Shown here one piece after another: positions 10,750 through 46,821 of a stretch of 64,000 bases of DNA. Location: the IMG/VR virus record IMGVR_UViG_3300044970_002549, positions 27,158 to 91,157 of that record, one strand, 5' to 3'. Every line of letters starts with the position of its first letter. Position 1 is the stretch's first letter. The DNA comes from a virus. The notes beneath the pieces were generated by a model. That model was not told the DNA's origin, made no database searches, and saw only the letters and a program-made list of their open reading frames with translations. The position numbers and the translations under genes were made by a program.

Positions 10750-11038
10750 ACTGATCGTAGTCCTCCTTGCGGCTACTTACTTCGTCAGACCACTTTCTGG
10801 TCATTGAGAGCTTCTTTACATACGCAAACGGGTCACCGCTCACATCACGGATTGCCGCTTCGCAGATTGCAGACATCAGGGCCGGGATTCCGCCAGGAAA
10901 TGCAGCCATGAGCTGCGCAATTCGCCCATAATCGGTGCGTTTCATTGGTTTTCCGGTTACCGCAGTGAAGAAGTCTCCGATTCTGCCCTGTCGGTTGCCC
11001 GACTGCTCAACATCGACGCGCCACTGCGCCAGCGTCAT
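10733..11038 (-). CDS. hypothetical protein, possibly the initiator-like partner of the loader
   Basis: Start moved to ATG 11038 (ATGA overlap); lies immediately upstream of the DnaC-like gene. Confidence 0.6.
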   Translation of the reverse strand: MTLAQWRVDVEQSGNRQGRIGDFFTAVTGKPMKRTDYGRIAQLMAAFPGGIPALMSAICEAAIRDVSGDPFAYVKKLSMTRKWSDEVSSRKEDYDQYVERE

Positions 11039-11916
11039 CGTACTAGCTTGTCCAACGTGCTGTTCCTGATTCCCGGCAGAACTTCTAACATCTTTTTCTT
11101 TGTTTCTGGTAGCTTTTGTGGGTGCGACTCCCATTGGTTGCACAGCCTCCTATACTCACACGACGAGTGCACAAATGCCGTAGGATTTGGATAGATCGCG
11201 CCCTTTTCGCGCGCGTCCAAGATTGCCCTAACGGTAATGTACAGCTGGTCGATATCATCCTGCGTTCGCGTTGTTACGCGACGCTCCACATTCGGCCCCT
11301 TTGAGTGCTTAGAGATGATGTTGAACGTCACCTTCGGGTCGTGACCGTGATTCTGTCGAATCGCATTCACATAAGCGGTGGCCTGTGCATCTCCATGCTC
11401 TCGGCCAGCCTCCCACTTTCGGTCCGCCGTCTTGTGCTCGACTACATCGTTCTCTTTTGTCACCATGTCCAGCACCGACTTGAGCTTGATCGGCAGTTTG
11501 CCGAGCCTGCTGTGTTCGATGTCGGCCATGAAGGTCCGCTCAACCGCGCTTGCCGTCCAGTCATCACCTTCCAGCAGTGCGGCCTTCAACATATCCTCGC
11601 CCAACGCGCTTTCGCTAATCGGATTCTTGTCCTTTTCCTGCGTCCAGTCGATTGTGGCCGACTCCTTGGCGTAGGTGGACTTAAATGCGTCGATTGCTGG
11701 GGTAAGGTCGCCAATTTGCTTGCCGCCGCCAAAGGGCTCGTACCAGCTGGCAAGTCCAGCATGGACTGACGTACCGAGAGCAAAAAAGCTCGTCTGCTTG
11801 TCGGTCCAGAGGCCCATGCCATACCGGTACCACCAGCGCAGCGGACACGCCATAAACTCGCGGATCTCGCTGACGCTGATGTGCTTCTTTTCGAGCGTGC
11901 TATCTGGTATCTGCAT
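11035..11916 (-). CDS. PD-(D/E)XK RecB/AddB-like exonuclease
   Basis: SVSEI...CP, GTSVH, VE, LD...EHKT, QxxxY and C-terminal C..C motifs. Confidence 0.85.
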   Translation of the reverse strand: MQIPDSTLEKKHISVSEIREFMACPLRWWYRYGMGLWTDKQTSFFALGTSVHAGLASWYEPFGGGKQIGDLTPAIDAFKSTYAKESATIDWTQEKDKNPISESALGEDMLKAALLEGDDWTASAVERTFMADIEHSRLGKLPIKLKSVLDMVTKENDVVEHKTADRKWEAGREHGDAQATAYVNAIRQNHGHDPKVTFNIISKHSKGPNVERRVTTRTQDDIDQLYITVRAILDAREKGAIYPNPTAFVHSSCEYRRLCNQWESHPQKLPETKKKMLEVLPGIRNSTLDKLVR

Positions 11917-13600: not shown

Positions 13601-14734
13601 TCAGATTTCCCCGTGCAACCTCATGTTTTCTACGATTCTGAGGCCAATCCACTCAGCAACCAGGCTGGCCACCCCGTTTCCGCAAGCATCTGCTCGTACT
13701 GTTTCATTGGTTCTGTCAAGAAGTGGGTGCTCCATGCACGCGCCTCCCTGGATTAGGTGCTGACCAAAGACGCCAGACGAAGAGAACGCAGTTAGCGTGC
13801 TGTACGCACCGTCCTCTGTCCAGCGTTCGAAGAATCCGTTGTTCTGGCTGCGCTCAATCTTCCTGAACATCCTGAGCTCTGGTCCGTTGGAGTTTGGAAG
13901 CTCTATGATTTGGTGCGTTTGACGTGTAGACGTCGGAATCCTTTGACGAGTGTGTGCCCGTCCGGCCACCCCATTAGGCGCTCCATCTCCAGTGTAGTCA
14001 GTCTTCGCAAAATCAAGCGCTGCTGGTCGATGGTCTCGAGAATCTTCTGGTGGAGGTCCGGCGTAAAGCCGATCTTCGGACCATTGGGTGTACTCACGAC
14101 CGAGCGCCCAAGGTAGTTCTGGGCCTCCTCTCGCGTCAAGAAGAACCTCGCCGGCGCGAGCGGTTCCAAGATGTCCAAGAAGGAAGACTCGACGGCGCGG
14201 CTGCGGCACTGGCCGCCGTCCCCCATGCAGTTCACAGCTTCCGGCGCTCGACGCATCAATAGTTCGCCACGAAACGCCATACCCGAGTTCGTCCATTTCC
14301 TGGAGGAGTCGCCCCATGTCTCTTCCTTGATTTGATGTGAGGAGTCCCGGGACGTTTTCGAGAAGAATCCATTCTGGTGCAAAGGACTCAACGAGGTTGA
14401 GGAACGAGAACGCGAGGACCGAACGCTCACCTGTAAACCCCTTTCTCTTCCCTGCCGAACTTAGGTCTTGGCACGGGAAGCCAGCTGACCAAAGAGTAGC
14501 ACCTTGCCAGGCTTCTCCAGTTTTTTGGGTGCTGACTGTTGTAATGTCGCCAAGGTTTTTTAGGTGTGGCCAGCGCGCAGCAAGCACCGCAGATTGATAT
14601 GCAGAATTTTCGCACATGGCAACGGTAGTCCATCCAGCAGCCTCGAGGCCTAGGTCTATTCCGCCGACACCGCTAAATGTGGAGAAGTGGCTAAGACTTT
14701 TTACCGCGCTTTTTCTTTGGCTTTTTCTCATCAA
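13601..14734 (-). CDS. DNA (cytosine-5) methyltransferase, large polypeptide lacking motif IX
   Basis: Motifs I FSGVGG, IV FPCQ, VI ENV, VIII QPRRRVF and X GNGV are present; no motif IX in this frame. Confidence 0.9.
   Translation of the reverse strand: MMRKSQRKSAVKSLSHFSTFSGVGGIDLGLEAAGWTTVAMCENSAYQSAVLAARWPHLKNLGDITTVSTQKTGEAWQGATLWSAGFPCQDLSSAGKRKGFTGERSVLAFSFLNLVESFAPEWILLENVPGLLTSNQGRDMGRLLQEMDELGYGVSWRTIDASSAGSCELHGGRRPVPQPRRRVFLLGHLGTARAGEVLLDARGGPELPWALGREYTQWSEDRLYAGPPPEDSRDHRPAALDFAKTDYTGDGAPNGVAGRAHTRQRIPTSTRQTHQIIELPNSNGPELRMFRKIERSQNNGFFERWTEDGAYSTLTAFSSSGVFGQHLIQGGACMEHPLLDRTNETVRADACGNGVASLVAEWIGLRIVENMRLHGEI
13903..14430 (-). CDS. nested +1-frame methyltransferase subunit carrying motif IX
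   Basis: GTG start with AAAGGGG 7 nt upstream; LRRLTTLEMERLMGWPDGHT matches C5-MTase motif IX. Confidence 0.8.
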   Translation of the reverse strand: MSVRSSRSRSSTSLSPLHQNGFFSKTSRDSSHQIKEETWGDSSRKWTNSGMAFRGELLMRRAPEAVNCMGDGGQCRSRAVESSFLDILEPLAPARFFLTREEAQNYLGRSVVSTPNGPKIGFTPDLHQKILETIDQQRLILRRLTTLEMERLMGWPDGHTLVKGFRRLHVKRTKS

Positions 14735-14833: not shown

Positions 14834-16993
14834 TTAGCTTTTTTCGCGGGCCTCAACCTGGCGCATGATCTTTCCAGACCACGACTGACCTGGGTTTCCG
14901 CCCCAAAGCGCCCATGCAATTCTTCCGGCTGATGGGTACCCGGTTTCGCCTTGTGACCATCCCTCGCCCTGTTTGTCGACTTCGTGTCGGGCAAGATAGG
15001 CTCGCATCTTGCGCACCCTCGCAATAGTCATCTTGTTTCCCGTAAGCATTCTGGCAGTAACTTGGCCAGGGCCAATCCCTCCGCGGCCAAACTCTTCTCG
15101 CCAATCAAGTCCTCTGCGCGCTTCGGCCTGAACCGACGATGGCACGTTAAGGTTGATTCCGGAATAGTCAGCGGCCTTATGGGCTTGCTTTATGTCTTCC
15201 GGAGAATGAACGTTTCTCACCCCAACAGAGCGGTATGCATCTCTTGCGGCGGCATCATTCTCAACCGCCTCGACAACATTTCCAAGCTCTTTCATAACTT
15301 TTGACATCTTGTACTTCTTGAACTGAAGACCAGCACCGGCAGGGAAGTCACTCATGTACAGCTCGTCGTGAGGAACATCATTTGCATCAAGCCAGTCCCT
15401 TGTTTCTTCAAGGCGCTTGGTGGATCTGGCACTGATGATAACGATGCGGTGGGTCTCAGACTTTCTTTGAAGATAATCGACCACCGACTCGTTTGGCTCA
15501 TCCGAACCGTCGCTGATTGTTAGGGTTCCGTCAATGTCGCTGACAATAATCGGGTCTCCGGCATCCTTGGAGCTCTGTGACTGGGCTGCCTCCTCTGGCG
15601 TGTTGTCTTCAACCATTCCTTCGCCCTGGTCGGGAGAAGGAACTCCTTGCGGCTGGTTTGCGCTAGGTGGATTGCCTCCATCTGGGTCGTCTTCAGGGCC
15701 CTCTACGATGTTCTCCAAATACTCAAGATAAAGACTCATCGGCATGTAGCCTTGCGGTGTTGGAAGCCAGATCTGCTCGCCCATTTCGCCAACCCCGTCT
15801 TGCCCACGCTCTCGAAGCGCGTCGTTCAGTCGGAGCCACGGTAGCCCGGCAAGTGCCTGCTTGTAGTAAGAAGACATTTCTGTCTGCGTCTGCCGGCCCA
15901 TGTCGGTATAGGCAAAGCGAAGGTTTTCGTCATAGCGCCATACGATTTCCCTTGTGATGTACTCGGCAATCAAATCAAGAAGCGGCGCAATGCCGACGTC
16001 CTGCGTGAATGCAGCCCCAACGTCTGCGGTGCTGCGGTTCACATCAAATCCAATACCGATGTCCTGCGGCTGAACGCCGAATACCGCGCAGATCTTTCGG
16101 GCAAGGTAGACCTGCCACTCCATGAACTGCATGTCGCGGTTAGAAGACGCAAGCGGCATCCACTGCATGCCCTTGCCGCCACCGGTAATTGCTATTTGGC
16201 TTCGTCCTGCAATTTCTGCGTCCCAATATGCGCGGAATGAATCTACTTGGTCCGCACGAACGCCCTCGCCAAGATGCAAAACGCCTGGTGGAGCTGCTGC
16301 CATGACTGCTTTTGCATTGTATGCCGCTGCCGCCAAGTCTGCCTCAATCGTTTCGGAGAGAACTTCTAGGGGCGAGAGGCCAAGCGGTGAGTAGGTGACA
16401 GGGTTGGAAATAATTACAATGAGTTCTTTATTAAGGAATCGTGCAACCTCTCTTCCATCGTCATCAAACTCGAAATACCTAGGGGCTTCGGGGTCGCTTC
16501 CGTCCCACCCTGAATCGAATACGATTCTTGCGGCGTCCTTGCTGTGAATGGCTGCAATCGGCTTGTTGCTTGTTCCGATTCTTCCGCCGTTGGTGGTCTC
16601 TACCTCAATCGCACCCTGGTCAAGCACCAGAATGTCCTCGATAACAGGCTCAATTAGGGAGCGCCACGACTCCATCTTTTGATTTGGCTTTCTGAGCAAA
16701 TCCTTGACTAGTGCAACCTTGCGTGCATTTACTGGGCTGTCTGAGTCCATTGCAACAATGTCCCATTTCGCTCGGCTGACCTGAGTCCTCCGCAGGTTGA
16801 TGGCGGCTCTAATCCATGGGTTGTTTCGGGACCACCTGCGAAGCTGCTGGGTGCTTCGCTTCGCATGATGCGTTACGCCAGCCACACCCCTGGCATATGG
16901 CGCGGAGTCGTATTCCGGAACAGTTGTGATTGCATTGGCGACTATATCGCCGCCACCAAAGAGTCGGCTGAGAAATGAGCGGCGCTCTGCCAT
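14834..16993 (-). CDS. portal protein fused to a HAD phosphatase and a C-terminal domain
   Basis: HK97-like portal motifs (GLSPLE, DMQFMEW...ICAVFGV, LNDALRERG); then VSDIDGTL...SAR...K...END; then RIAWALWGG domain. Confidence 0.88.
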   Translation of the reverse strand: MAERRSFLSRLFGGGDIVANAITTVPEYDSAPYARGVAGVTHHAKRSTQQLRRWSRNNPWIRAAINLRRTQVSRAKWDIVAMDSDSPVNARKVALVKDLLRKPNQKMESWRSLIEPVIEDILVLDQGAIEVETTNGGRIGTSNKPIAAIHSKDAARIVFDSGWDGSDPEAPRYFEFDDDGREVARFLNKELIVIISNPVTYSPLGLSPLEVLSETIEADLAAAAYNAKAVMAAAPPGVLHLGEGVRADQVDSFRAYWDAEIAGRSQIAITGGGKGMQWMPLASSNRDMQFMEWQVYLARKICAVFGVQPQDIGIGFDVNRSTADVGAAFTQDVGIAPLLDLIAEYITREIVWRYDENLRFAYTDMGRQTQTEMSSYYKQALAGLPWLRLNDALRERGQDGVGEMGEQIWLPTPQGYMPMSLYLEYLENIVEGPEDDPDGGNPPSANQPQGVPSPDQGEGMVEDNTPEEAAQSQSSKDAGDPIIVSDIDGTLTISDGSDEPNESVVDYLQRKSETHRIVIISARSTKRLEETRDWLDANDVPHDELYMSDFPAGAGLQFKKYKMSKVMKELGNVVEAVENDAAARDAYRSVGVRNVHSPEDIKQAHKAADYSGINLNVPSSVQAEARRGLDWREEFGRGGIGPGQVTARMLTGNKMTIARVRKMRAYLARHEVDKQGEGWSQGETGYPSAGRIAWALWGGNPGQSWSGKIMRQVEAREKS

Positions 16994-27636: not shown

Positions 27637-30600
27637 GTGGCGGAAGAAAATGTCGCAAGAGTTGGCATAGCTCTTGATTCTGCCGCATTCCAGGACGGGG
27701 TATCCCGCGCCCTTCGTGACATCGATCGACTCCTCAGCGGACTCAAGACACTACAGAACGCCAACAGGCAACTCTCCCTTGCTTCTGGAGGCGGACTCTT
27801 CGGCACCGGTTCTAGGTCCCCCGTTGCCAACTTTGCCCGAGACATAAATCGGACAGCGATACCGGCCCTGCGCGATATGGAACGCAATGCGCTCCGTGTT
27901 GGCGGGGCCGTTCGCCGTTCCATGACAGAAATGTCCAGAATGGCATCTGTAGCAGAGCAGGCGCAAGTTCGGCAAGAGCGAGCGATCCTTGCCGGGGAGC
28001 GTCGAGCAATGAGTTCCCGCCGAGGTCGCGGCGGCAGATATCGGGACGAAGGGCTTTTTGGTGCAGTCCCTGCAGATCCTCGAGTTGGATCATTCGAAGA
28101 CCCGCGCAGCCCGTCAGGAAAGATTGCCGCAAGATACGTCCTGCGCACCCTAGAAGAACTCATTACATCAGAGGCAGAAAGCTACCCGCGCATCATGCAA
28201 CCTCGCCCCAGGGGTGGAGCTGGTCGGCAGGCAAGCGTTGGCTCAGAGCAAACTGTTTCTAGCGTCGCAAGCAAGTTTGCCCCGGGTCGAATCTTTAACA
28301 CGTCAACAAACCTAGAAGAGGGACTCCCAGTTACCATCGTTGGTCCTGGCGGGGAAAAGTTTGTTTTGTCAGGGAATGGTCGCGTCATGGGCATGCGTCG
28401 CCTCTCTCAACAGCAGCAAGGACGAGTTCCAATTGTTTCTGCAGTAGAGACATTTGTTGCTGGAAACCCGTCCCTGTTCGGCGGCGCTGAGGGCGTAGAG
28501 GAAACGCTTCGACAGGTTGCAAAAATTGCCAAAGCCAAGCAAACGCCGATACTTACTCGTGAGCTCACACAAACCATCGAGCAGATTGGCGCGCGAGAAG
28601 CCGGGAAACTTGGGCTTGGGCTAAACACTCGCACAGCGATGTCAGAAGCCGAGATGGCAATGGCCGTATCAAAGCTTTTGCAGCGCCCACCGACTGGCCT
28701 TGCAAAGGGAACGCCAGGAAAAGTGCTGTCAGGTGGTGGAGAACCTGTTCGTGAGTTTATTAGCCAAGTACTGGAAGTTCTTCCACCGCAGGTAGTTAGG
28801 TCACGATATCAAACTAGTTCTGGTGAATCAAATAAGCAGTTCCAACAGCTCCTAGAGGGCGTTGCAATGTCGTCTGCGTACGGAAGCAACCCTGCGACAG
28901 AGGCAATGATCACTCGCCTTCTTGAAGGAGGTAAGACTGGCTTGCCTCCGGCTCTTTCTGGAGCGCTTCGGAAAAATCTCGGACCGCAACTAACTCTGCG
29001 TGGTCGAATCGCTTCCGGCGAAATCCCTGCAGAGATGGACCCAATTTACAACAACCTCCCCCAGGCAATCGAGCTATTGACCCAGGCTCAAAAGTCATAC
29101 GGTCCGCGGTTTATGGCCGAACAGATTGGAACGCAGCAAGGCATGGAGCCCGCATCACCACAGGCTCTTAAGCTTGCTCAGGCCATGCGCAAGGCTGGAA
29201 CAGCCGGCCTTCCAGCATTCTTTGAGTCTATTGCCCAGTATGGAAAGAGGGCAGTGTCTGCTACTGCGCCAACGCTAGGACTTGATCCCGGAGCATTTGT
29301 TGCTGACCCAGAGGCGGCAATTCGCATTGCATCCGAAGCGGCCTCCAAATTTGCATCACACAAGGGACCAAAGACAGAGGGCATCCTCTCGTCAATTGTC
29401 GAGGCTGCCATTCGAGAGTTTGCAACACCAGAAGTAATTCAGCCGGTTGCCAAAAAGGCGGCAAAAGGAGCAGCTGCACGAACCGTTGAAAAGGCAGTCG
29501 AAACAAAGGTTGAGCAGGTTGCCGAGGCAGTCGCTGAGGCGGTTACTGACCCAAGAGCCACTAGCATGCGACGACCAGAGTCTGAGCGCTTCTTCAAGGT
29601 AAATCCCCGAGCCATCGGCACAGCCGCAGGATCAGAAAGGGCCCGTTCAGGAGGATACGTCCCATACGGCGAGGCTTCCGAAGCACAGCGTGGCAAGTAC
29701 AACATGACGCTTCTTGGAGGGTATGCAGAGCTAGAAAAGCAATACGAAGAGGCGCAAAAAGAAGCTGAATACATGAAGGAAAACTTTGCCACTAGGCCAG
29801 GGGCCACTCCACACGCTTCAGTCCAGAAAGCAGAAGCACTGCGAGCAAAGCTTACCGAGCTAAGAGGTGTCATGATTGAGCGCGGCCTTCATAAGCCAAC
29901 TATGGCAGAGCAAATTGCAGAGCTATTCACCGGCCCTTCCTCATCATCGTCTGGCCTGACCCCAACCAGAACCTCCGGAGGCGGGGGTGGCGGTGGAGGC
30001 GGGGGACGTCGACGAGGGCCTTCTGGCGGTGGCGGAGGCGGGGAGGAAGAGGAGAAGACCCCTAAGTGGATTCAGAGTTTCCAGGGGGCTCTAGCTGCAT
30101 CCGGGCTTGACCCTCAAACTTTAAAGTACATGACCTCTGGGTTCAAGTTTGGCGCCACCCAGGCTGCCATTGAACCGGGTCTTTTTTCGCAGTCACGCGC
30201 ATCTCTTGAGGCACTTCAGCAATTCGCTGCAGTCCGCCAGCTCAGCATGGTTCAGATGTCTCGTGGGCTTGTTGGTAGCGGAGCAAATGGTTTCTGGCAG
30301 CCACAAGAGGCTGGTGAACGTGGTGGCATTGCTCTTGGTGGATTTGGTGCGAGGACTGCCGCCCCACTCCTAAGGACAATGATTCACGAAATAGCACACG
30401 GCACATTCGAGTCCCTGGTTGCCGGCGGGTACAAGCCTCAGACGAAAGTAGAGATGTATGGGCCAAAGGGAGAAGCGCTTGGCCCGGTAAATGCGCGTCA
30501 AATGCTTGCGCCATTCAAAGAAACAACGGCCAGCGGACACGTCGATCCAGCATTCTATCGATCTCAGGCAATGATCAGCAAGGCTGGCGGCGCGTTACTT

Positions 30601-33600
30601 CCGCAGCTTGCATTTCACAGGATGGTCGAAGAGGTCATGCCGCAGGGACATCTTACCGAGGGAATTGGGTTGGGCAAATTCTCGCAGCTGCTCACCCCGC
30701 ACCTTAAAGAGTTTGCATCTCCCGAGCAGTCAACAGCAGCAGAAGAGTTTGTCAAGTTCTCCGCACGCATCATGGAAGCGACAAACAACTTTACTCAGGG
30801 CGGTATCGGAAAGGGTGGCGCGCTTAGCGTTCTCTCGGAAGGCCTGCAGCAGCTTGGCGCATCAAGCAAGGCGTTCCCTTCAACATTCTTCCTTGAGGCT
30901 GCATCTGTTGTAGGAAATACCCTAAAGAACCTCGAGGCCGGAGACCCGGATAACCTGACCAAGGTTGCAAAGTCGCTCATGAATGCTGCAGCCCTTACCA
31001 TTGGCGAGGGGGAATTCAGGCCTGGCGTAGCAGTTGCGTCAAATGCAGCAAAAGAAGTCGCAAACTACCTTGCTTCAGCAAGCATTGAAGAGAAGGCGGC
31101 AATTGCGCTTGGGGCAAACCCGAAACTTCTTGGAGACACTTCATTTAACCCTGGCAACGAAGGGCATGTCCAGAAGGTTAACGAGGCAATTGCAAACATT
31201 TCTCGTGTCGCATCTGAAACATCACGCGGCGTTGCCGTAGCCCGATTCGTTGGCGGACAGAGAGTCGAGACCCCATACGCTGCGGCCGCAGGACTTCTCG
31301 GTCCGGCTGCGCCTGGAACGCTTGCCGCACAAACGTCTCCACTCCAGTTCCCAGGAGGAAGCCTTGCGCAAAGAATGGCTTACTACGGGTCTCAATCAAC
31401 AGGCCAGCGCGGCATGGAAAGTGCAATCCCTGGAGCGTATCTGCGTGCCAAGGAAGGACAATTTATTGGAATGGGGCCAGCCTACCAGCAGGCATATGCT
31501 TCCGCCCGAAATCGCCAAGAGCTAGAAGCGGGCATCAAATCATCTGCTAAAAGCGAATACGTTCAATCTGCCAACGCGGCCATGCGGTATGCCGAGGTGC
31601 AAAGCCGACTAAACCTGATTGTCCAAAATGGCAATGTCAACTTCTCGCAGCTTTCCAGAGTCCTAACAGACGCAGGCACTGGATTCACCGTCTCCGCAGC
31701 AAATGCGCTCAAGTTTGCTGCCGCCATTGCTGTTGGCCAGCAAATTACCGGCTCGATTGTTGGCGTATTTGAACATCTTAAGGGTGGCATCCTTGGATTC
31801 AACGCAATGCTTGAGTCTGCGAGCGTCGGCTTTACAACGTTGTTCAAGAATGCGGGACGGTCCGTACGAGACGCTGAGTCAGAAACAGCGAAAACAATCA
31901 CCACGCTTCGAGAATTTGCCAACGTTACCAACTTCCGATTCGGAGACCTGGAGACTGCCGCCCTGCGAATGCAAGCGTTCGGATTTGAGGTCGACACCGC
32001 AAGGGCGGCGCTTAAAAAGCAAATGCCAGTTCTCTATGAGGTAAATAACGTTCTCGAGAGAAACGCAACTGGCCTCAAGACCTTCCGTGGGGCACTTGTA
32101 AACATCGGAGATGCGGTAGCGGCACTTGGCGGAGAAGACGACAAGCTTCGAAGAATTACGTACGCACTCGGGCAAATGAACTCTGCTGGTCGCGTATACC
32201 AGAACGACATGATGCAGCTGGCAAACGCCGGTATCGCTGGATACGACATTCTCGCCAAGGCTCTTTTGCAAGAGATTTCCGCAAGCCCAGAACTAAAGAA
32301 GGCCAACGCCGCAATCTACAACAAGCTGATGAATCCAGAGACTGCGGTTGAAGAGGTCCGAAGACTCGCCAAGAGCGGACGACTGTTTGGACCAGGAGCT
32401 GTTCAAGCAATCCTGAAGGGCCTCGAGGAGAGGTACGGCGGGGGAATGAAAGCGTTCTCAAGAACATTCCAGGGAGCGATGACGACAGTTGCCGACACCT
32501 CCCAGTCGCTTGTAGCAACTGCCTTCAACCCACTGTTCTCCGTTGTCCGCGACCTTACGATTCAGCTTGCTGACTTCCTGCAGCAGCCAGAAGCTGAGGC
32601 CGGGGCAAAGAATCTTGCAAAGGCAGTTCTTAGCGTTTCTAATGCAATTAGGACAGGGCTCCCATCTGCACTCTCGACCGCAGATAAGATTCTATCGTCT
32701 ATTACTGGGACATTTGGCAGTCTTGCAGGAAGCGCTGCTGAGGGGACAAGCAGCCTTGGCGGGTTTGTTAGAAACACCATTAAGGGTCTTTCAACTTTCG
32801 GTGATGTTCTAGAAAACTCAGTCATTCGCAAATTTGGATCAGCTCTTGTTGTGGCCAAGCTTTTGTTTGGATTTATTGCCGCAAACCCCCTTCTTGCAAC
32901 GCTGACAGCCGGGACTGCCGGAATCGGGTTCCTTGCCACAGCAATCCAAGAAAATCAGTTTGGGCTTGGAACTGCATTCCAAAAGATAGCTGTCCCGCTT
33001 GAGCAGACCCTTGAAAACCTTGGCAACAATATTATGCCAAGCCTTTCTAATACGCTTACAGCTGCCGCAGGAGTAATTGGCGCAACCATCGCATCCATCA
33101 TGACGGCAATCTCCCCGTTGCTAGAAATTATTTTGAATGTATTGAATATTGTAACTTCTGCCGTAAAGCCATTCTCTTCGGTCCTTGGAGTTGCTCTTGC
33201 GCTATTTATTGGAAAGAAAGTACTAATAGACGGAGTGGCGTCAGCAATGGCCAGATTTGCAATGTTCACCGAGAAAGCTGCTGGATCCGTCGACAACATG
33301 AAAATGAAGTGGTTTGCCGGTCGGGAACTTCAGGCATTTGAGCGATTCGGAAACACGACAATGGGCGCTCAGATGGTTGCCCCTCAATACAACAAGCAGG
33401 GTGAGCTGACCCAGGCTGGAAAGGTCCAATTCGGTCAATTTGGTGGGGCCGGAATGGGATACAGCAGTCCACTTCTTTACAAGATTTTCATGGCCCAGAT
33501 GAAGGAAATGGCTGGCGCGCAAGGATTTGAGTTCCAAAATCTTGCCGGCGATCCAACTGGCGCAGAGAAGTTGACGCTGGAGACCACGCCGATTGCCAAG

Positions 33601-36600
33601 GAGCAGGCTCTTTCGGCGCTTTCATGGCTTAAGGGGCTAAAAACCAGCGATCCAGAAAAGTATAAAGAAACACTTGCAGCCGCTACGCCTTCAGAGCGAC
33701 TTCAGCTTGAGGAGGCAATGAATGCCGGGCTTAGAACTGTTGTTTCTGGGCTTCGTGCGTTTAAGGCAGAGCTGGACAAACTTCCAACGGTTATGCAGAA
33801 GCTTGGCTATATTGGCCAAATTGCTTTTGACAAGATCGGCACACTTGCGGGAGCGGCTACTGGTCTTGGCCTGACGCTATCGACTCTTGGCGGTCTGATG
33901 AATAATGAGGCCCTTGTGGGCTTTGGATCAACTCTCGCCACGGTGGGAATTGCAACATCTGGTCTTGTGATGACATTTACTCAGCTTAAGCAGGCCCTTG
34001 GGCCGTATGGCTTCGCCGGTGCAATTGGCGGCGCCATTTCGGCCCTCGGTCTCCTTGCAGCCGCTGCATACGAAGATCATAAAACCAAGCAGGACGATGC
34101 AAAGTCAGCCCTAAGCGATCTCGGGTCGCTCCAGTCAATCATTGGGCCAGATGCACTGCAGGCCGAATACGGAAATTTGATTGAAGGGCTATCCCGCTCA
34201 TATGAGCTTGGGTTCGACCTGACGGACGAGCAAAAGGCATCTCTTGCCGCCGCGAGGGAAAGACTTGAGGTCCTTAGGGCCCAGATCCGCGAAGACAGAA
34301 TGGAAAACTACACTGGCAAGGGGTCTGCCAGGTACACAATGGAGAAAAATAAAGAGACAATCAGGAACTACGCAATCCGAGGATACACGCCGGAGCAGAT
34401 CGCTGAATTTACCGGATTGAATCTTGACTATGTAAAAAACCTGTTCGAGAACATGGTTCAGGACGGCAGCGAAGCTGGGCAGGAATACATCAAGATTCTT
34501 ACGCAGCAACTTGACGCAACGGGGGAGGCGCTGCAGAAAGCCAAGGACATTCTTGAAAAGGCCACAGAGGCATTCGAGCGTCCGCTCAACCGCCTTATGT
34601 CCAGGGTGCAGACGCTTATTTCTGAGCTATTTGCCGACGAGAAGGAAAAGCTTCAGGAGGAGAGCAGAACTGCGCTTGGAAATATTGAGGTTCTTTACAA
34701 CGGGGAAATGATTCGGCTTGGGGTTCTTGAGGAGCAGCACAGGATTCTCACTGAGCAGCGCCAAGAGATGGAGGAGATGCAGCGACTGGAGGACCTTAGA
34801 ACCAAGGCATCTGAGGCCGCCCTTGAGATGTTCGATGCTGGCACTGACCCGCTTGAACGCGCCAGGGCAGCCAGGGACGCAGCAAGAGACCTGTTTTCTG
34901 AGTCCGAACAGATTCGCCTTGACCAGATGGGCAAAACTATTGAAGAGGCAAAAACTAGCGTGCCGTATATGGCCACATCTGAGGACTATGACCTTCGCAT
35001 CAAGGCGCTTGAGGTTGATCAGCAGGAGCGACAGCGCGTTTTGACCGAGACAATCGACGACCTAATGCGCAAAGTTAAGAACGGAAAGCTTAGCGCCGAA
35101 GAGGCCAAGAAGATGCTGCAAGATGCGTTTGCGGACACCGGCCTTGACCTTGCAGTTGCTTCCGCGCAAGGATACGACTTCATGGAGCACTTCTCATCTG
35201 GGTTCATGGATGCGCTTCAGAAGAACATTGATTTGACATTTAAGCGCCTCCCTGCGCTTATCTCAGCCGCCGTCAGGGCACTCCGTGAGGATGCTGCATA
35301 TAAGAAGGCCCAGGCCGAGCTTTCTGAAATCCTTAACCCAACACCTCTCGACAAAAATATTTCAGGTGCCGAGATGGCTGCGGAGCAAAAAAGATTAATC
35401 GAGCGAGCAAAGAGAACGCTTCAGGCGTTGCAGCTTGCTGAAAACGTCCCAGGACAAACCGCAGAACAAAAAAAGGCACTCACTGGACAGATGTCATCAA
35501 TTGCAATGTATATCAGAAAATTGGAGAAAAATCCATTTGCGGCAAACCTTAATTACTCGGAATCTGAAAAAACACTGCTCACCGAAAACTTTGGAAATCA
35601 GACCAACGCCGCGCTAGGCAAGCTTTTTGCCCTGTTTGGATACGACACAGTTCTGCAGTGGGTGTTTGGTGGGGTCCCAATGGCATCTCGCCCCGGGAAC
35701 ATTAACCCCAGGGCATCTGGGGGCCCAGTTGGTGCCGGAACCTACATGGTCGGAGAGCGCGGACCAGAGATGCTTCAGATGTTCCCGAATGGCGGCGGCT
35801 ATGTTGTGCCTAACCACAAGCTCCCCTCACACATGCGATCTTCTGCTGCTGCCCTTGGCGGTGGAGTTATGGGCCGTGCGTGGGGTGGCGGCGTAGGCAT
35901 CACCAACCCAGAAGTCCCAGTCGGCCGAAGCACCCTGCAAACACCTCTAACTGACATCGCCAACATCGTTGGCGGAAATGTGCAAAGAATCCGCCCTGCA
36001 GCATTCACAAGAACAGTCACCTATGATTTCCCATGGGGCAAAATTGTCATTGACCGATCTATTCATGATGATGTAGTTAGCCGGTTTCCGATCTCAAAGA
36101 TGCAGGAATATGCTGAATTTGCAATGTCCTCTGGGCGACCAGGGACTTTCAGCGAAAAGAATCCTTTTGAGCTTCACCTTACCCCAAGAGTTACTGACAG
36201 GGAGGCTGTTGCATTTGCCCAGTCTGATCTTGTTGGCGTTGAGTGGCACGGGAAAACCGGGCTCAATTTCCCTGACGACGAATCGTTTAGGCAATTGCTT
36301 ACTCACGAAATCGGGCACTCGGTCATGGAGCGCAGCGCTCCGCGTGGCCTTCATCCAATTTTCAGGCCGATGCAAGGCATTGTCCCGCCAATGTACAAGA
36401 AGATTTTTGGCCTTATGGCCGGTCGAACACAAGGAAATATTGCTCGCGGCATGGGCCTCAGCGGATGGGACGATAACGCGATAAGTTCAAGCGGATATGG
36501 TCAGGAAAGCTGGGCAGAGAGCTACGCAGAGCACTATACAAATTATGTCAAGGCAGGTGGAGACACCGCGGCAATAAAATACGGCGAGCTAAACACGTCT

Positions 36601-38286
36601 CCACGCGAGGCTCGCCCAATGCTTGGGACATATATCCAGCGCCTTGCTAATGCTGAAGGATGGCGTCCGCCAACGGCTGCCCCATACCGTGGCCTGCCTG
36701 AGGTTGGACCATCAATATTGCGAAACGGCAAGGCTCAGGCTGGAGTTGGATCGCTTATCGACTTTGCCCAAATGGCCGCAAGCGGAACGCTCAACGCAGC
36801 TAACGCGGCTGCATCAGTTGGCCTTAACGCCCTATCACTTGTTCCTCGCGGCGGAGGAACGCTCTCCGCAGTAGCTGGCCTTGGATTAACCGCTGCTACC
36901 GGCGGAGACATGGGCCGCGCAATATTCTCTACCATCGGATCGGTCCTTGGAGGCATTGCTGGAGGCGCTCTTGGCTCATTCATTGCCCCCGGAGCAGGGA
37001 CCGTTGTGGGCGGCATGGGCGGATCGATGGCTGGTGGCGCATTTGCCGACTGGTTGTACTCATCAATCTTTGGCCCAACAACTGGGCCGTCTACTGTCGG
37101 GGCATTCAGGAAAGGTTCCTTTGCCATTCCAAACCGAGCTTGGGGCGGGGCGGTAGGCCCGTCCGGCCCTGAAGGGGATAACTTTACAAACTTTGGCGAC
37201 AAGGGCAGGACTACTGGGAAAATGCCAGCTGCATTCCTTAATCGGTTCATGAAGTACGGGATAAGTGGCCTTCTAGACAGTCCTTGGCAAAAATATGTTG
37301 GCGGTAGCTACATGCCAGTCTACGGCAATGCCGTAAATGCTTGGTGGGACAGAATCACCGTGGCCTCCTCAGTTCCATTTAGCTCACTTCCTAAGTACCA
37401 GCAGCTAGACGAGATTATGCGCGGAAACTATCTTCCGCCAGAGTTTTACACTGGAAACAAGGACAACCTTTCATATGCAGAGCTGATGGCGTCTCGTGGG
37501 GCCAAGTTCCCCGGCGTGGTACAGGGGTGGCTGACAGCGTTTGGCGAAAAGTCACCCGTCACCTATTGGGACCGAGAGGCTAGGGAGAACAACCCGGAAC
37601 ACGCAGAACACCTTAAATACAATAAGCTTTACAACTGGTGGCGGAAAGTCGGACAGTTCGGAAACTATAAGGGGTATGACGACCCGTACTACCGCTGGAC
37701 CAAAACTATTGATCCAAAAACAGGCATCCTTACCGACACATGGCCAGAAAATGCCCAAACCCGGAAATCTAAAAGGGTTCAGGATCTCATCCCTGAAATT
37801 TCCACATGGATGCTTACTCATGCGGGCCCAATGACGCAAGACTGGTTTGGCAAGGGGTGGACCCTGGACCAGTATGAGTCTTCCCCGTGGGGTAAGAAAA
37901 TGCTTGGGCCATGGAAGAGCATCATGTTTGGCGAGGGCGGGTTTGTAAAAGACATAGAGAAATACTCGCAGAGAGTACAGCAGGGGTGGATGGGTGAGCG
38001 CTATGCGGCAGGGGGAAACTATCGACAAAATCGAGCATTCCTTGTTGGCGAAAATGGCCCAGAGATCATGGTTCCGGGCGGGCTAGGAGGATCGATCATC
38101 CCTAACCACAAGCTGCGCGGACCAGGAAACATCGGGTCAATGGCCAGCGGCCAGAGCGTCAACGCCTCTGTCATTATCAACAATCCAACCGTTTCAAACA
38201 GCGCAGATATTGATAAACTAGCTGCAAAGGTAAGCGAGGCTCAAACACGAGCCCTGCGTGCAGCTGGATATGTAAGGCCGTCATAA
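27637..38286 (+). CDS. tape measure protein, multidomain (3549 aa)
   Basis: Tape-measure domain (FNAMLE...ALGQMNSAGRV...QLANAGI) at about 31780-32600; RASGG/VGERGPE motifs; extra SGNGR, HEIAH and HEIGH domains. Confidence 0.9.
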   Translation: MAEENVARVGIALDSAAFQDGVSRALRDIDRLLSGLKTLQNANRQLSLASGGGLFGTGSRSPVANFARDINRTAIPALRDMERNALRVGGAVRRSMTEMSRMASVAEQAQVRQERAILAGERRAMSSRRGRGGRYRDEGLFGAVPADPRVGSFEDPRSPSGKIAARYVLRTLEELITSEAESYPRIMQPRPRGGAGRQASVGSEQTVSSVASKFAPGRIFNTSTNLEEGLPVTIVGPGGEKFVLSGNGRVMGMRRLSQQQQGRVPIVSAVETFVAGNPSLFGGAEGVEETLRQVAKIAKAKQTPILTRELTQTIEQIGAREAGKLGLGLNTRTAMSEAEMAMAVSKLLQRPPTGLAKGTPGKVLSGGGEPVREFISQVLEVLPPQVVRSRYQTSSGESNKQFQQLLEGVAMSSAYGSNPATEAMITRLLEGGKTGLPPALSGALRKNLGPQLTLRGRIASGEIPAEMDPIYNNLPQAIELLTQAQKSYGPRFMAEQIGTQQGMEPASPQALKLAQAMRKAGTAGLPAFFESIAQYGKRAVSATAPTLGLDPGAFVADPEAAIRIASEAASKFASHKGPKTEGILSSIVEAAIREFATPEVIQPVAKKAAKGAAARTVEKAVETKVEQVAEAVAEAVTDPRATSMRRPESERFFKVNPRAIGTAAGSERARSGGYVPYGEASEAQRGKYNMTLLGGYAELEKQYEEAQKEAEYMKENFATRPGATPHASVQKAEALRAKLTELRGVMIERGLHKPTMAEQIAELFTGPSSSSSGLTPTRTSGGGGGGGGGGRRRGPSGGGGGGEEEEKTPKWIQSFQGALAASGLDPQTLKYMTSGFKFGATQAAIEPGLFSQSRASLEALQQFAAVRQLSMVQMSRGLVGSGANGFWQPQEAGERGGIALGGFGARTAAPLLRTMIHEIAHGTFESLVAGGYKPQTKVEMYGPKGEALGPVNARQMLAPFKETTASGHVDPAFYRSQAMISKAGGALLPQLAFHRMVEEVMPQGHLTEGIGLGKFSQLLTPHLKEFASPEQSTAAEEFVKFSARIMEATNNFTQGGIGKGGALSVLSEGLQQLGASSKAFPSTFFLEAASVVGNTLKNLEAGDPDNLTKVAKSLMNAAALTIGEGEFRPGVAVASNAAKEVANYLASASIEEKAAIALGANPKLLGDTSFNPGNEGHVQKVNEAIANISRVASETSRGVAVARFVGGQRVETPYAAAAGLLGPAAPGTLAAQTSPLQFPGGSLAQRMAYYGSQSTGQRGMESAIPGAYLRAKEGQFIGMGPAYQQAYASARNRQELEAGIKSSAKSEYVQSANAAMRYAEVQSRLNLIVQNGNVNFSQLSRVLTDAGTGFTVSAANALKFAAAIAVGQQITGSIVGVFEHLKGGILGFNAMLESASVGFTTLFKNAGRSVRDAESETAKTITTLREFANVTNFRFGDLETAALRMQAFGFEVDTARAALKKQMPVLYEVNNVLERNATGLKTFRGALVNIGDAVAALGGEDDKLRRITYALGQMNSAGRVYQNDMMQLANAGIAGYDILAKALLQEISASPELKKANAAIYNKLMNPETAVEEVRRLAKSGRLFGPGAVQAILKGLEERYGGGMKAFSRTFQGAMTTVADTSQSLVATAFNPLFSVVRDLTIQLADFLQQPEAEAGAKNLAKAVLSVSNAIRTGLPSALSTADKILSSITGTFGSLAGSAAEGTSSLGGFVRNTIKGLSTFGDVLENSVIRKFGSALVVAKLLFGFIAANPLLATLTAGTAGIGFLATAIQENQFGLGTAFQKIAVPLEQTLENLGNNIMPSLSNTLTAAAGVIGATIASIMTAISPLLEIILNVLNIVTSAVKPFSSVLGVALALFIGKKVLIDGVASAMARFAMFTEKAAGSVDNMKMKWFAGRELQAFERFGNTTMGAQMVAPQYNKQGELTQAGKVQFGQFGGAGMGYSSPLLYKIFMAQMKEMAGAQGFEFQNLAGDPTGAEKLTLETTPIAKEQALSALSWLKGLKTSDPEKYKETLAAATPSERLQLEEAMNAGLRTVVSGLRAFKAELDKLPTVMQKLGYIGQIAFDKIGTLAGAATGLGLTLSTLGGLMNNEALVGFGSTLATVGIATSGLVMTFTQLKQALGPYGFAGAIGGAISALGLLAAAAYEDHKTKQDDAKSALSDLGSLQSIIGPDALQAEYGNLIEGLSRSYELGFDLTDEQKASLAAARERLEVLRAQIREDRMENYTGKGSARYTMEKNKETIRNYAIRGYTPEQIAEFTGLNLDYVKNLFENMVQDGSEAGQEYIKILTQQLDATGEALQKAKDILEKATEAFERPLNRLMSRVQTLISELFADEKEKLQEESRTALGNIEVLYNGEMIRLGVLEEQHRILTEQRQEMEEMQRLEDLRTKASEAALEMFDAGTDPLERARAARDAARDLFSESEQIRLDQMGKTIEEAKTSVPYMATSEDYDLRIKALEVDQQERQRVLTETIDDLMRKVKNGKLSAEEAKKMLQDAFADTGLDLAVASAQGYDFMEHFSSGFMDALQKNIDLTFKRLPALISAAVRALREDAAYKKAQAELSEILNPTPLDKNISGAEMAAEQKRLIERAKRTLQALQLAENVPGQTAEQKKALTGQMSSIAMYIRKLEKNPFAANLNYSESEKTLLTENFGNQTNAALGKLFALFGYDTVLQWVFGGVPMASRPGNINPRASGGPVGAGTYMVGERGPEMLQMFPNGGGYVVPNHKLPSHMRSSAAALGGGVMGRAWGGGVGITNPEVPVGRSTLQTPLTDIANIVGGNVQRIRPAAFTRTVTYDFPWGKIVIDRSIHDDVVSRFPISKMQEYAEFAMSSGRPGTFSEKNPFELHLTPRVTDREAVAFAQSDLVGVEWHGKTGLNFPDDESFRQLLTHEIGHSVMERSAPRGLHPIFRPMQGIVPPMYKKIFGLMAGRTQGNIARGMGLSGWDDNAISSSGYGQESWAESYAEHYTNYVKAGGDTAAIKYGELNTSPREARPMLGTYIQRLANAEGWRPPTAAPYRGLPEVGPSILRNGKAQAGVGSLIDFAQMAASGTLNAANAAASVGLNALSLVPRGGGTLSAVAGLGLTAATGGDMGRAIFSTIGSVLGGIAGGALGSFIAPGAGTVVGGMGGSMAGGAFADWLYSSIFGPTTGPSTVGAFRKGSFAIPNRAWGGAVGPSGPEGDNFTNFGDKGRTTGKMPAAFLNRFMKYGISGLLDSPWQKYVGGSYMPVYGNAVNAWWDRITVASSVPFSSLPKYQQLDEIMRGNYLPPEFYTGNKDNLSYAELMASRGAKFPGVVQGWLTAFGEKSPVTYWDREARENNPEHAEHLKYNKLYNWWRKVGQFGNYKGYDDPYYRWTKTIDPKTGILTDTWPENAQTRKSKRVQDLIPEISTWMLTHAGPMTQDWFGKGWTLDQYESSPWGKKMLGPWKSIMFGEGGFVKDIEKYSQRVQQGWMGERYAAGGNYRQNRAFLVGENGPEIMVPGGLGGSIIPNHKLRGPGNIGSMASGQSVNASVIINNPTVSNSADIDKLAAKVSEAQTRALRAAGYVRPS

Positions 38287-38287
38287 T

Positions 38288-41200
38288 ATGCCAACCTCTA
38301 ACGTAACCGGGTCTATCTCCGTACGGCTGCAGCCAAAGCTGCTCAACCATACTCCTATTGGCGACGGGTTCTTTGATGTCACGAAGCGCGTCATGTTCTC
38401 GGAGTCCGGGAACGACCAGACCTTTGAGTTTACCCAGAGCTCCGATGGCAACCAGTCAACGGCTAAGTTCTCCCTGTTTACAATGTTTCCGATTTCTATT
38501 ACTCGTTGGTCAGGATACGCTGGCGCAAACGTTGACGAAAAGGTTGCAAACGCAGTAATCGACCCCACATTTGATTTTGACATTCCTTCAAGGACAGAGG
38601 TAAATATCTATGAGGGCGAGGATCTAATCTTCGGCGGCGTTGTGACGGAGGTTTCGCGCATTCGCCAGGGTGGAATGATCATTATGGAGGTAACGTGCGC
38701 TGACTACACTGCCCTCCTTGATGAGCTTGTAATCGACCGATACAAAGTTCCATACCTTGCAAAAGACTACGAAATCATCAAGGGTGGATTTAGCACTGAC
38801 GAAACAGAGAATTCAGTCAAGATCACTAAGCTTAACGACGGCGGATCTGGCTCCGTAAGAGAAATCGTCGTGTCCCTAGACGACTCGCACGATTTGACGG
38901 TTGGACAGCAAGTCGTTATTGACAAGACGACAAACTACAACGGGACATGGACGGTATCTGAGATTCTTTCCCTGTTTGCCTACAAGGCTACAAAAAGCGG
39001 AACTTCTCCGTATAGTGCCACAAGCGAAACCAGCGGTCGTCACATCCCGAAGACAATCTCGTTCTTTGATGACATTCGCACGACTGACCCATACTCTGGG
39101 GCAAGCTTTAGCCCAGGGATCACGTTTGACTCTTCAAGCGTGCAGGAAGAACTCAGTCAGGTTCGATTTAGCCCGGTGACGTATCTCCCAGACCCGAAGT
39201 TCCCTGAGCAGCTTGAGGGTAAGATTTGGGTGCCGTTTGGGGAAGCAAAGTCTAGCTCTGGCCGGCTGACGCTTGACCCAAAGAGCGGCGACACCACCAC
39301 GGACCTTCGCCTTGCCAGGATTGAAAGCTCTATCGTTGAGCGATATGCCGTAAAGTCAATCTCAACCACTGCGCAAGGCACATCTCCTGACCTCTACTAT
39401 CGAGTAACAATTATGGGTAACCACTACATTACCGACGGGACTCGCGTTGGCATCCAGAATGCTTTCTTCGGAGACCCAAACAACGTGACTCAAATGTTCC
39501 GCGTTAACAACGTGGCCAGCTCAACAACTATGGATATCTATACGGAGCAGGGCGTAAGCATTCGCCCCATCACGGCATCTATTACTGGGGCAACAAGCTC
39601 TAACGGAAAAACTACCTACACTTCGGTTAACACGTTTAAGGTCGGAGATTTTGTTGGTATTTCTGATGTCTCCCAGTCAGGCTCCACCGGAACGTTCAAT
39701 GTACCATTTGCGACGATCACGGCCTGCACCCCCACCTCTTTTACAATTAACAACACCACCACCAACACCTACACATCTGGGGGAACCGCAAGCGTGACGT
39801 TTGTGGTTGTGTCAGACCCAGCCAGCCTGCAGGCCGCTGAGAAGCGATTCCGCGTGGTTGCTGGTTGCCGACCAAATCTTGACGATGAGTCTGGGACTGG
39901 CCAGATATGGTTTGACGGCAAGCTTGGCATCGGCGGAACGCCCACCGGAAAGTGGTTCAACCCTAATGAGATCGCGTTTGTCTCAAAGTCCAATCAATTT
40001 GACGGACGCATTCGGGTCGAGGAGAACGATGACGACGCAGACGCCAACCTTGGCGGCAAATACTATGTTGCCCGATGGAGACGTCGCAAGAACATTGTTA
40101 CCCTTCAGGTCGCAAAAACGGCATCTGATGGCAAGATTAAATTTACCCGCAGGCACCCGTTTGAGAAGGGCTCAGTGATCACTATTGCCGGGGTCCCAGG
40201 CCCTGCTGGCGGAAGCACGAATAGCCCCAACGCAACGAACGTCACAATTACAAATATTGTTGATGGCATGATTCAGTATGAAGACGCTGGAAAGCCTCGC
40301 CTAAAGCTCCTCAACCTAACTCAGGCACAGCGGGCATCAACCAGCGTGACTATTGCTTCTGGTGTGCTTACAAAGCCATATGTGATCTACCAGGACAGAC
40401 GAGAAGGCACCGGGAACACGTATGGCCAGACCCCAGAGAGGATCGGGTATAACGCCGTGCTCTCTCACTTCCAGTGGGATTGGGCCGCCGTATCTGGTGG
40501 AGATCGCGCTGCCGCAAGTCCTAGTGCCTCCTTCACCACCATGCCTTACGACGATGCTGAGTACATCGCAGGACGACAGGGTGTGAAATTTGTTGCAAGC
40601 AAATACACTGCAATTTCCTCTACGATGCGCTCTGAGATACTGAGCGTGAAGCGCTCTGGAACGCTTGTCACCGTTCAAACGCATGCGCCAGTTTGGTTCC
40701 CAGAAGGCGGAGTTGTAAGGGTTGATAGCGGTGTTTCGTCAGTAAACGGAACCTTCACGATTGTTGATGTATCTACCGAGGACACAACTCCTGGCTTTAC
40801 GTACAACACTGCAACATCAGGAACAATCTCCGAAACAACCACGACTGGCTACGCCTATAACGAGCACAATGGCTTCTGGGCACTTGGAAAGTCATTCTCT
40901 GCGATCTGCATGGTTCGGGTAAACGACAGCCTGCCATCCTCCGCTCAGTACTACACAATCTGGCACCACGGATCAATCACGACGGGACAGCGACGAGAGC
41001 TGAAGATCGACAGCGCCGGACAGATTGTCTTTAGCACAACAAACTCAGTCAACAATGCAACTGGCCTATACCTTCTTGCCGACGAAGAGGCAATGATCTA
41101 TGTGTCCCTAGATAGCGCAACTGGCAATTTGCGCGTTCGAAAGAACGATGAGACGCCGTACACAGTGCAGCTAGGAAGCAACTTTAGCGGCACAACTGAT

Positions 41201-46400: not shown

Positions 46401-46821
46401 AGATATTGGTGGCGTCATAAGAAATGCTCCTACGCAACATACCGTTACTACTGGATATTATAGCGCAGTATGGTACACGTCTGCTAGCGGAGGAACGCAA
46501 CCATACGCATTGAGATTCTACACGTCTTCATCAAGGTATAAAACAGGAATTACCATCGCTGACGATGACATATTATCTAAATTTGATGAAATTGATGCTA
46601 AGCATTTTTATCGAAATGATGAAAATGGAAATCCGGGAACATGCCTGGAACTTGGATTTATTGCAGAAGATTTTAACGATGCTGGACTATCATGTGCTGT
46701 AACCTATACTCCAGACGGTGCTGCAGACTCTCTCATGGAATTTCCGATTATTGCAGTTCTTTGGCACAAAGTTAAGCAGCTAGATAAAAGGATTGCAGAA
46801 TTAGAAGGCAATGCCATCTAG
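43477..46821 (+). CDS. tail fibre/spike with C-terminal intramolecular chaperone (peptidase S74-like)
   Basis: G/S/T-rich repeats; SSSRYKTGI...GFIAED...VKQLDKRIAELE. Confidence 0.85.
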   Translation: MSEKLSSALLQSPNGGLFSTLSVDGSGIVIKNASDDQRSDGTFVPAGSDTLVLSAVGESSFLNASYMKVGVLDASLLRTGLLQTVASWNSKWYGSAEDSMDVQQGFSGGKFAVTSVSTGANSVTLSGVESATGTNHNITSGDFVRVSGLVFDDNTYGNVGIDSPGVGAAAYAEATATTSTTITYELTGVGAGKTTLDLALPFVSKVVPIVSASRVYDDELTNDNPGELSKVTVVTASSHGLSTGNYVELAGVEDSLNGVWRVSGAPNSTTFEFWQRFVEDLDWENDDSITLPEYGTPVAIEVAKSYRVTSDGTLMAYGSVFNPAGTRRSAILLRGGGTQGDIAVPADETLQIGYRNGAGGLGGTFTSIMTINTPASGNQGATVINGSLTVDTLTATTINGGTGSVPDDITAHTITTTQGNIRIRPYENDGGTADKRGELEFYTQIASTGYYTSRVMAFSDKDHGNALVIDPDLKVLGDAQVVGDLTVSGALTAGSFSIGTLNATTVNASSGYYNYLDVGNVATKHAVIQPNGQLTVNDDTNSTSANTGAVVIKGGAYVAQDLRVAGSIYVSVFSPDSITMGVGNNIISQGYVSASAGYYGSMIVGTGVSSKMEVDVSGQLTLNNSTAATSVAGALYIPTGGIRALTGNIGTLTVTSTFSPASLSISGGGGISVTGGGDIATTSSATANTMSATNGYYLNFAAGSSTKALIGLTGKLTVQNTDTSTSKSGLGATGSVVVAGDISVAKKIWAEDLDITGSLTGGFTLGAIAPSSVVSSYGYYTSLNGTTLSIGSSTAATIGAAGKVTINNTTSAVSTTTGALEVAGGVGIAGNLHVGGSINGTITLPSTISASSGYYQTLGSTTLDVGSVATGTRVAITSAGVVSITNANNATSRTTGALKVTGGVGISGDLYATNITATGTFSPTSISTGTISSTGTISGSTGYYDTIGVANLTVGGTTTNFVVTSSGAVDMDGSIDIGGVIRNAPTQHTVTTGYYSAVWYTSASGGTQPYALRFYTSSSRYKTGITIADDDILSKFDEIDAKHFYRNDENGNPGTCLELGFIAEDFNDAGLSCAVTYTPDGAADSLMEFPIIAVLWHKVKQLDKRIAELEGNAI

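Follow-up and report, generated by a model that had tools for sequence, protein, structure and literature searches.

A putative two-chain C5 cytosine methyltransferase with motif IX in a nested reading frame of a phage gene

Analysis of a 64,000-nucleotide stretch of viral DNA, called the window below (positions 27,158-91,157 of IMGVR_UViG_3300044970_002549; all coordinates are window positions), identified a C5 cytosine DNA methyltransferase gene that contains a second, nested gene in its +1 frame and that very probably encodes an alpha/beta heterodimeric enzyme of the M.EcoHK31I type. Judged by its conservation in related sequences, the locus is a real dual-coding gene and not the result of chance, sequencing error or pseudogene formation; we infer that beta is translated, that the two chains form a heterodimer and that both are needed. 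An earlier note, made from the window alone, had proposed a two-chain layout like that of M.EcoHK31I, and the proposal was strengthened here by the presence of motif IX solely in the nested frame, by the recurrence of this arrangement at about 70 loci and by signs of purifying selection on both frames.

The outer frame, alpha, is an open reading frame of 377 codons on the minus strand that begins, according to the ORF list and the sequence, with a TTG followed directly by an ATG; the ATG at 14731 is the likelier start than the TTG at 14734. Motifs I, IV, VI and VIII of C5 cytosine DNA methyltransferases were found in order in this frame, and direct reading of the sequence placed them and motif X as follows.

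13601..14734, minus strand: alpha chain ORF, with motifs I-VIII, an unconserved linker, a TRD-core segment with a 'TL' dipeptide, and motif X, and without motif IX
14677-14660, minus strand: alpha motif I, FSGVGG
14476-14468, minus strand: alpha motif IV, PCQ
14359-14351, minus strand: alpha motif VI, ENV
14203-14189, minus strand: alpha motif VIII, QPRRR
13745..13867, minus strand: alpha TRD-core segment, FRKIERSQ..ETW-like..STLTAF..GQHLIQ, downstream of the beta stop and with normal codon variation
13681-13670, minus strand: alpha motif X, GNGV, followed by the C-terminal helix

The match of alpha to PF00145 (E 8.7e-39) is confined to residues 17-189, corresponding to profile positions 4-162 of 324, and the match to TIGR00675 (E 2.5e-36) covers the same residues only, again in the first half of the profile. 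With alpha as the query, nine full-length relatives were found at 74-86% identity, and many others at about 40%. In an alignment with 16-17 homologues, motif IX was absent from the alpha frame between the 'TL' segment and motif X, and a block of the form GVR..DG..RR.D that is conserved in the homologues proved to be the frame-0 shadow of a motif IX encoded in the other frame. The earlier note had read motifs I, IV, VI, VIII and X, and no motif IX, in this frame, and had suggested a PF00145 scan; all parts of its observation were found at the coordinates it gave, and the scan matched the first half of the profile only. An AlphaFold2 model of alpha was reasonable for residues 11-199 and the motif X helix and of low confidence for residues 200-352.

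The motif IX that alpha lacks is carried by an ORF of 175 codons, counted from a GTG, that lies wholly inside alpha in relative frame +1 (14430..13903, minus strand). A motif-IX pattern scan located ...RRLTTLEMERLMGWPDGHT... at 14010-13951, near the end of this ORF, in accord with the ORF list and with the position given in the earlier note. Motifs IX and X are both present at the locus, X (GNGV) in alpha and IX in the +1 frame only, and the stretch that codes in two frames is about 370-530 nt long.

13903..14430, minus strand: beta chain ORF, +1 frame, from GTG 14430 to the stop codon at 13905-13903
14101..14190, minus strand: beta small-domain starter module, SSFLDILEP..ARFFLT..YLGRS, overlapping the end of alpha motif VIII and the strand that follows it
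13951..14010, minus strand: beta motif IX, LRRLTTLEMERLMGWPDGHT, located by the motif-IX pattern scan and conserved in the clade

The DNA of the starter module also encodes the alpha strand RVFLLGHLG..EVLL, giving conserved protein sequence in both frames, and in relatives the module takes the form SLSxVLE..P.(K/R)(Y/F).LS.KA..GILRRA..LP..L..AL. A profile built on beta aligns to residues 247-354 of Dcm (3lx6; E 1.3e-3), a region that runs from just past motif VIII to motif IX, and beta can therefore be read as motif IX preceded by the opening segment of the small domain. Scanning the beta frame with PF00145, also suggested in the earlier note, gave a divided result, as the profile matched the +1 product in 32 of 42 relatives examined and the window's own beta fell below threshold; the window's motif IX stretch has a weak match to TIGR00675 (E 0.05, profile positions 277-299). 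In an AlphaFold2 model of a 125-aa form of beta, residues 30-112 were predicted with confidence (pLDDT 78-90) and residues 1-26 were disordered. Searches with this model by Foldseek and VIA-align gave no significant match (best Foldseek E about 3, VIA Z <= 3.5), with Dcm and Dnmt2 appearing solely among the weak rows.

Selection on the two frames was examined in the window's own clade of 12 loci, which share 76-99% nucleotide identity and align over 364 codons with zero indels. The mean pairwise diversity at position 3 of alpha codons changes along the gene as follows.

Alpha codons 14-101: 0.49
Alpha codons 102-151: 0.27
Alpha codons 152-182: 0.09
Alpha codons 183-276: 0.14
Alpha codons 278-377 (past the beta stop): 0.53

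The diversity recovers exactly at the beta stop (alpha codon 277), and over alpha codons 154-273 it is position 1 that varies most, which is the wobble position 3 of beta. The amino-acid identity of the +1 frame in these 12 loci is 0.41-0.47 outside beta, 0.63 over codons 102-138, 0.87-0.89 over codons 139-182 and 0.82 over codons 183-275, and in the motif IX segment mean identity in the clade is 0.93 in the beta frame versus 0.69 in alpha. Conserved stops of the +1 frame lie at alpha codons 91 and 276/277 and enclose a stretch that is free of such stops in 12 of 12 sequences, and each clade sequence has 2-7 such stops elsewhere in alpha. These patterns indicate purifying selection on the nested frame, the limits of the constrained stretch agreeing with the start region and the stop of that frame. 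Shuffling of synonymous codons in a single sequence gave P = 0.03-0.07 for an open +1 frame, a result that is weak alone because the alpha amino acids in the overlap have themselves been shaped by beta; with P marginal, it is the comparative data, from other loci and from the shift in codon position, that carry the argument.

These comparisons also bear on the reading of the locus as an artefact or a decaying gene, in which assembly indels or a frameshifted pseudogene would have split a single-chain methyltransferase. Two frame changes, one into and one out of +1, could indeed put motif IX in the main frame, but both frames are intact, and free of indels over the 364 codons, in 12 relatives that were assembled independently, about 70 distant loci have the same frame relation, and alpha stays open through the whole overlap while both frames are under purifying selection, so that we regard this explanation as improbable to the point of being negligible. 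Indel errors that merge the frames, which the earlier note had named as fatal to its reading, are effectively refuted by the same 12 indel-free relatives and about 70 loci.

Given a constrained nested frame, we looked at the signals from which beta could be translated, and several lie within alpha.

14438..14444, minus strand: Shine-Dalgarno-like AAAGGGG, 7 nt upstream of the beta GTG at 14430
14278..14280, minus strand: alternative beta start ATG, formed by alpha Tyr152-Gly153 (TAT GGC) and yielding the 125-aa form
14256-14254 and 14226-14224, minus strand: two further in-frame beta ATGs, conserved in 12 of 12 clade members, which would give forms of 117 and 107 residues

The GTG and the AAAGGGG, both of which the earlier note had pointed out, are present and invariant in all 12 clade members. 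The alpha codons that form the Shine-Dalgarno site (Gly99 GGG, Phe100 TTT and Gly102 GGT) have synonymous sites that are invariant in 10 diverged relatives, and the synonymous positions of the neighboring codons vary. The arrangement of AAAGGGG, a 7-nt spacer and GTG also resembles bona fide starts in the same phage, for example that of the 3549-codon ORF at 27637, which has TAGGGGG, a 7-nt spacer and GTG. The ATG at 14280 is present in 12 of 12 clade members and in 48 of 54 split loci; the Tyr codon at this site is TAT in 48 of the 54, compared with 24% TAT at the other Tyr codons of these genes. The first ~35 codons past the GTG are weakly constrained (+1 identity 0.63), which, together with the disorder predicted for residues 1-26, fits a dispensable leader as reported for the beta chain of M.EcoHK31I. 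From these sequence features we favor GTG 14430 as the most likely main start of beta, with the ATGs at 14280, 14256 and 14226 as possible extras.

Start codons in the +1 frame also recur outside the lineages with the Tyr-Gly ATG. In L024-L049 and similar loci, which do not have it, other +1 ATGs are found at fixed places, formed from the alpha LDA codons (GAT GC) and from ENV (AAT GT). The TAT of the LGY site is retained in 26 of 29 non-split loci, most of which form no ATG there, suggesting that the +1 frame is read through that position in these loci.

Taken as a heterodimer, the locus would work as follows. Alpha (~376 aa) would be the large catalytic domain, with motifs I-VIII and the motif X helix, and its TRD-core segment would be joined through a linker of roughly 90 residues that is largely the out-of-frame shadow of beta. 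Beta would be made as a separate product of the same mRNA, initiated internally, most likely at GTG 14430 with its own Shine-Dalgarno site, and would consist of a disordered N-terminal leader, then the first small-domain segment and then motif IX. Docking of beta on alpha would complete the small DNA-recognition domain and give an active enzyme, which in the phage would probably serve as an orphan, self-protective methylase.

A single fused product could also be imagined, made by programmed +1 (or -2) ribosomal frameshifting near motif VIII and joining motifs I-VIII to the small-domain starter and motif IX. The beta frame is +1 to alpha, the conserved part of that frame sets in where motif VIII ends, and no start codon at a fixed position is universal in the wider family, all of which would suit such a mechanism. 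Nevertheless, the beta sequence SLSxVLE and the alpha strand VFIVASLG..EVL that follows motif VIII share the same nucleotides, so a fusion that keeps one segment must lose the other, and the fusion would be without motif X. The locus was also rejected as a programmed frameshift gene by the position of the constraint, which affects the downstream frame before, and not just after, any shift site; it begins at about alpha codon 139, some 40 codons ahead of any junction that would preserve motif VIII, and the +1 frame is open, with conserved start codons, upstream of the would-be junction. No conserved slippery motif was seen by eye at that junction. We consider frameshifting very unlikely and separate translation of beta the better account of the locus.

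The closest described system is M.EcoHK31I of E. coli HK31 (specificity YGGCCR), in which alpha carries motifs I-VIII, X and the TRD, beta carries motif IX, and both chains are required for activity (PMC2836561). The alpha gene of M.EcoHK31I encloses the whole of the beta gene, which uses a different frame (Lee, Kam and Shaw 1995, per PMC2836561), and internal Met codons of beta can start translation too, much of the N-terminus of beta being dispensable (PMC2836561). The window gene is alike in having motifs I-VIII, X and the TRD core in alpha and motif IX in a nested beta, a comparison of layout based on the description in PMC2836561. It is also alike in offering several candidate in-frame beta starts and in an N-terminal part that is predicted to be disordered here and is dispensable there. 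Unlike M.EcoHK31I, the window gene resides in a phage with no evident restriction partner, and its beta also has a recognizable small-domain starter module, encoded partly over the end of motif VIII.

Split C5 methyltransferases of the M.AquI type are encoded by two adjacent, non-overlapping genes, with the split in the variable region. They resemble the window's enzyme in having two polypeptides that divide after motif VIII, and differ in that the window genes overlap in different frames, with the TRD core and motif X back in alpha past the beta stop. An assignment to this type, in which the second gene would hold the TRD, IX and X, was rejected on account of the overlap and of motif X in alpha. 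Single-chain Dcm-like enzymes (PDB 3lx6/3me5; M.HhaI) have the same motif set, and in Dcm and M.HhaI, unlike the window, all motifs are in one frame and one chain. The starter module also matches the methyltransferases of P1/P7 (Dmt/Dam) and of Caulobacter, Vibrio and mycobacterial phages. The +1 frame was read in P7 and the Caulobacter phage J4; both differ from the window in that the main frame encodes motifs IX and X and the +1 ORF ends once the starter module is complete. No phage-wide family was described in the titles and abstracts of the M.EcoHK31I literature that we found.

The distribution of the layout was assessed in related DNA from viral contigs and genome contigs, where 167 unique loci were classified by tblastn and motif patterns. 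Motif IX was in a +1 ORF at 72 of the 167, and in 68 of these 72 motif X was in the same uninterrupted alpha ORF. A further 32 loci had motif IX in frame 0 and yet retained the +1 module, and 35 had the module with no motif IX pattern in either ORF, 28 of them with an early end of alpha (median about 264 codons). The dual-frame conservation that the earlier note had thought worth checking in homologues is thus borne out, the frame relation being kept at 72 loci. Loci that share the window's layout come from metagenomic, viral and MAG sequences, some with only 35-40% protein identity to the window, and the split class includes MAGs of Actinomycetota, Rhodobacteraceae and several cyanobacteria. 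Seven loci (L001-L007) whose alpha is 35-76% identical to that of the window have motif IX in +1 and motif X in frame 0, as the window does.

The beta profile was also searched against a library of 1.84 billion representatives at 50% identity, in which 9417 proteins matched at E <= 1e-3 and 2079 at E <= 1e-10; ten matches taken for inspection from the best 150 proved to be, in essence, beta-frame ORF calls. The earlier note had called the architecture rare, a description that does not survive the 2079 matches; the layout, known already from M.EcoHK31I, is far commoner than the literature suggests. The window's own sequences found no match in the phage collection, by blastn with the DNA or tblastn with the protein, and none in the plasmid collection. 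With the beta of the relative L004 as the tblastn query, 115 phage records were found, including P1, P7 and mycobacteriophage Omega; the matches in P7 and J4 occupy frame +1 relative to the annotated CDS, and frame 0 there encodes motifs IX and X.

Many relatives with main-frame motifs IX and X keep a conserved +1 starter ORF, among them L008 (3398-3640), L027 (3398-3643), the phage P7 dam gene (L193, 2501-2883) and J4 (L194, 1501-1901). In each of these four, the +1 ORF lies directly after motif VIII and contains the starter module, as ..LSxVLE..KYxLSxKAxxGILRRA..LPxxLxxAL, followed by a stop. With motif IX in the main frame, the role of the +1 starter ORF in these four cannot be to supply that motif.

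Such loci speak for a different role for beta, as a real separate protein that is not obligatory, a regulator or accessory that alpha does not need for catalysis, since they conserve the starter ORF despite having IX and X in the main frame. Against this, motif IX is absent from the window's alpha and conserved in its beta (identity 0.93), the small domain has this motif among its core elements, and the beta chain of M.EcoHK31I is required for activity (PMC2836561). We therefore think a dispensable beta unlikely at the window locus and prefer an enzyme that depends on both chains.

Other relatives divide the C-terminal half differently between the frames. The locus L011 (3392-4069) is fully interleaved, with a +1 ORF of ~226 codons that extends from the starter module to motif IX and with the TRD core between them in frame 0, giving the DNA order VIII (0), starter (+1), TRD core (0), IX (+1), X (0). 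In the database proteins P0280 and P0282 and in locus L017 (3521-4300), the beta frame extends through the TRD core and motif X, so that the +1 frame encodes the enzyme's C-terminal half and alpha would end early; these three are closer to the division of the AquI type, but overlapping. Such movement of the TRD core and motif X between frames would be tolerable only if the products assemble non-covalently. One protein of 476 aa (P0214) opens in the alpha frame around motif I and then follows the beta frame, which takes it through the starter module and motif IX, as either a natural frame variant or an assembly indel. Long proteins with motifs I-VIII and the starter module in one frame were sought by a word-limited, region-restricted search, weak as a test of absence; none was found, and the matches were beta-frame ORFs, two of them reaching through motif X.

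It is conceivable, at a likelihood we would place a little short of even, that the C5 methyltransferases of phages and prophages include a very large clade in which the nested +1 gene is ancestral and nearly universal. The starter module may then be produced as its own chain in every case, including those such as P1/P7 Dmt in which alpha lacks nothing else, and motif IX, the TRD core and motif X may shift between frames by single-base indels. If so, the two-chain design would lend itself naturally to the reshuffling of specificity, and a whole class of enzymes would be misdescribed in current annotation.

To our knowledge, long same-strand overlapping genes with conserved protein in both frames are few in bacteria and phages, and in the case proposed here the two overlapping products would each be half of a single enzyme. 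Should beta prove necessary, the window gene and many relatives are misannotated by the usual practice, in which pipelines keep a single frame or fragments of both, and alpha produced by itself from a gene of this kind would look inactive. Many natural variants of a split methyltransferase are found in the family, and they could serve studies of small-domain assembly as well as split-enzyme targeting tools of the kind built on M.EcoHK31I.

The gene calls of JGI/IMG illustrate the effect of the overlap. They contain the exact 125-aa beta, in the form that starts at ATG 14280, contrary to the expectation in the earlier note that gene callers would miss beta; alpha is present solely as pieces of 238 aa and 89 aa, and neither the 377-aa alpha nor the 175-aa beta is among the calls. 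Gene callers refuse the overlap and truncate alpha more than they miss beta.

The source record is a 91,157-bp IMG/VR virus rated 100% complete, in which alpha is the sole PF00145 match. Genes for a prohead protease and an SU10-type major capsid protein are nearby, and the immediate surroundings include the following neighbors.

14834-16993, minus strand: portal protein, 719 aa
13290-13583: HNH-like small ORF
11035-11916: PD-(D/E)XK protein, family PDDEXK_1

The portal, prohead protease and major capsid genes near the locus and the complete virus record confirm the assignment of the gene to a phage, as the earlier note had it. No gene for a cognate restriction enzyme was evident next to the methyltransferase, the nearby PD-(D/E)XK protein falling in family PDDEXK_1 and the small adjacent ORF being HNH-like, and an orphan, self-protective role is accordingly likely.

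Two further features of this genome were observed. The portal protein has extra C-terminal parts, with residues ~461-607 resembling domains of the HAD/polynucleotide-kinase-phosphatase type and residues 582-717 matching a PHROG of unknown function. On the plus strand, 27637-46821 holds a run of three very large ORFs, 3549, 1730 and 1114 codons in length; the first begins with a GTG preceded by a strong Shine-Dalgarno site.
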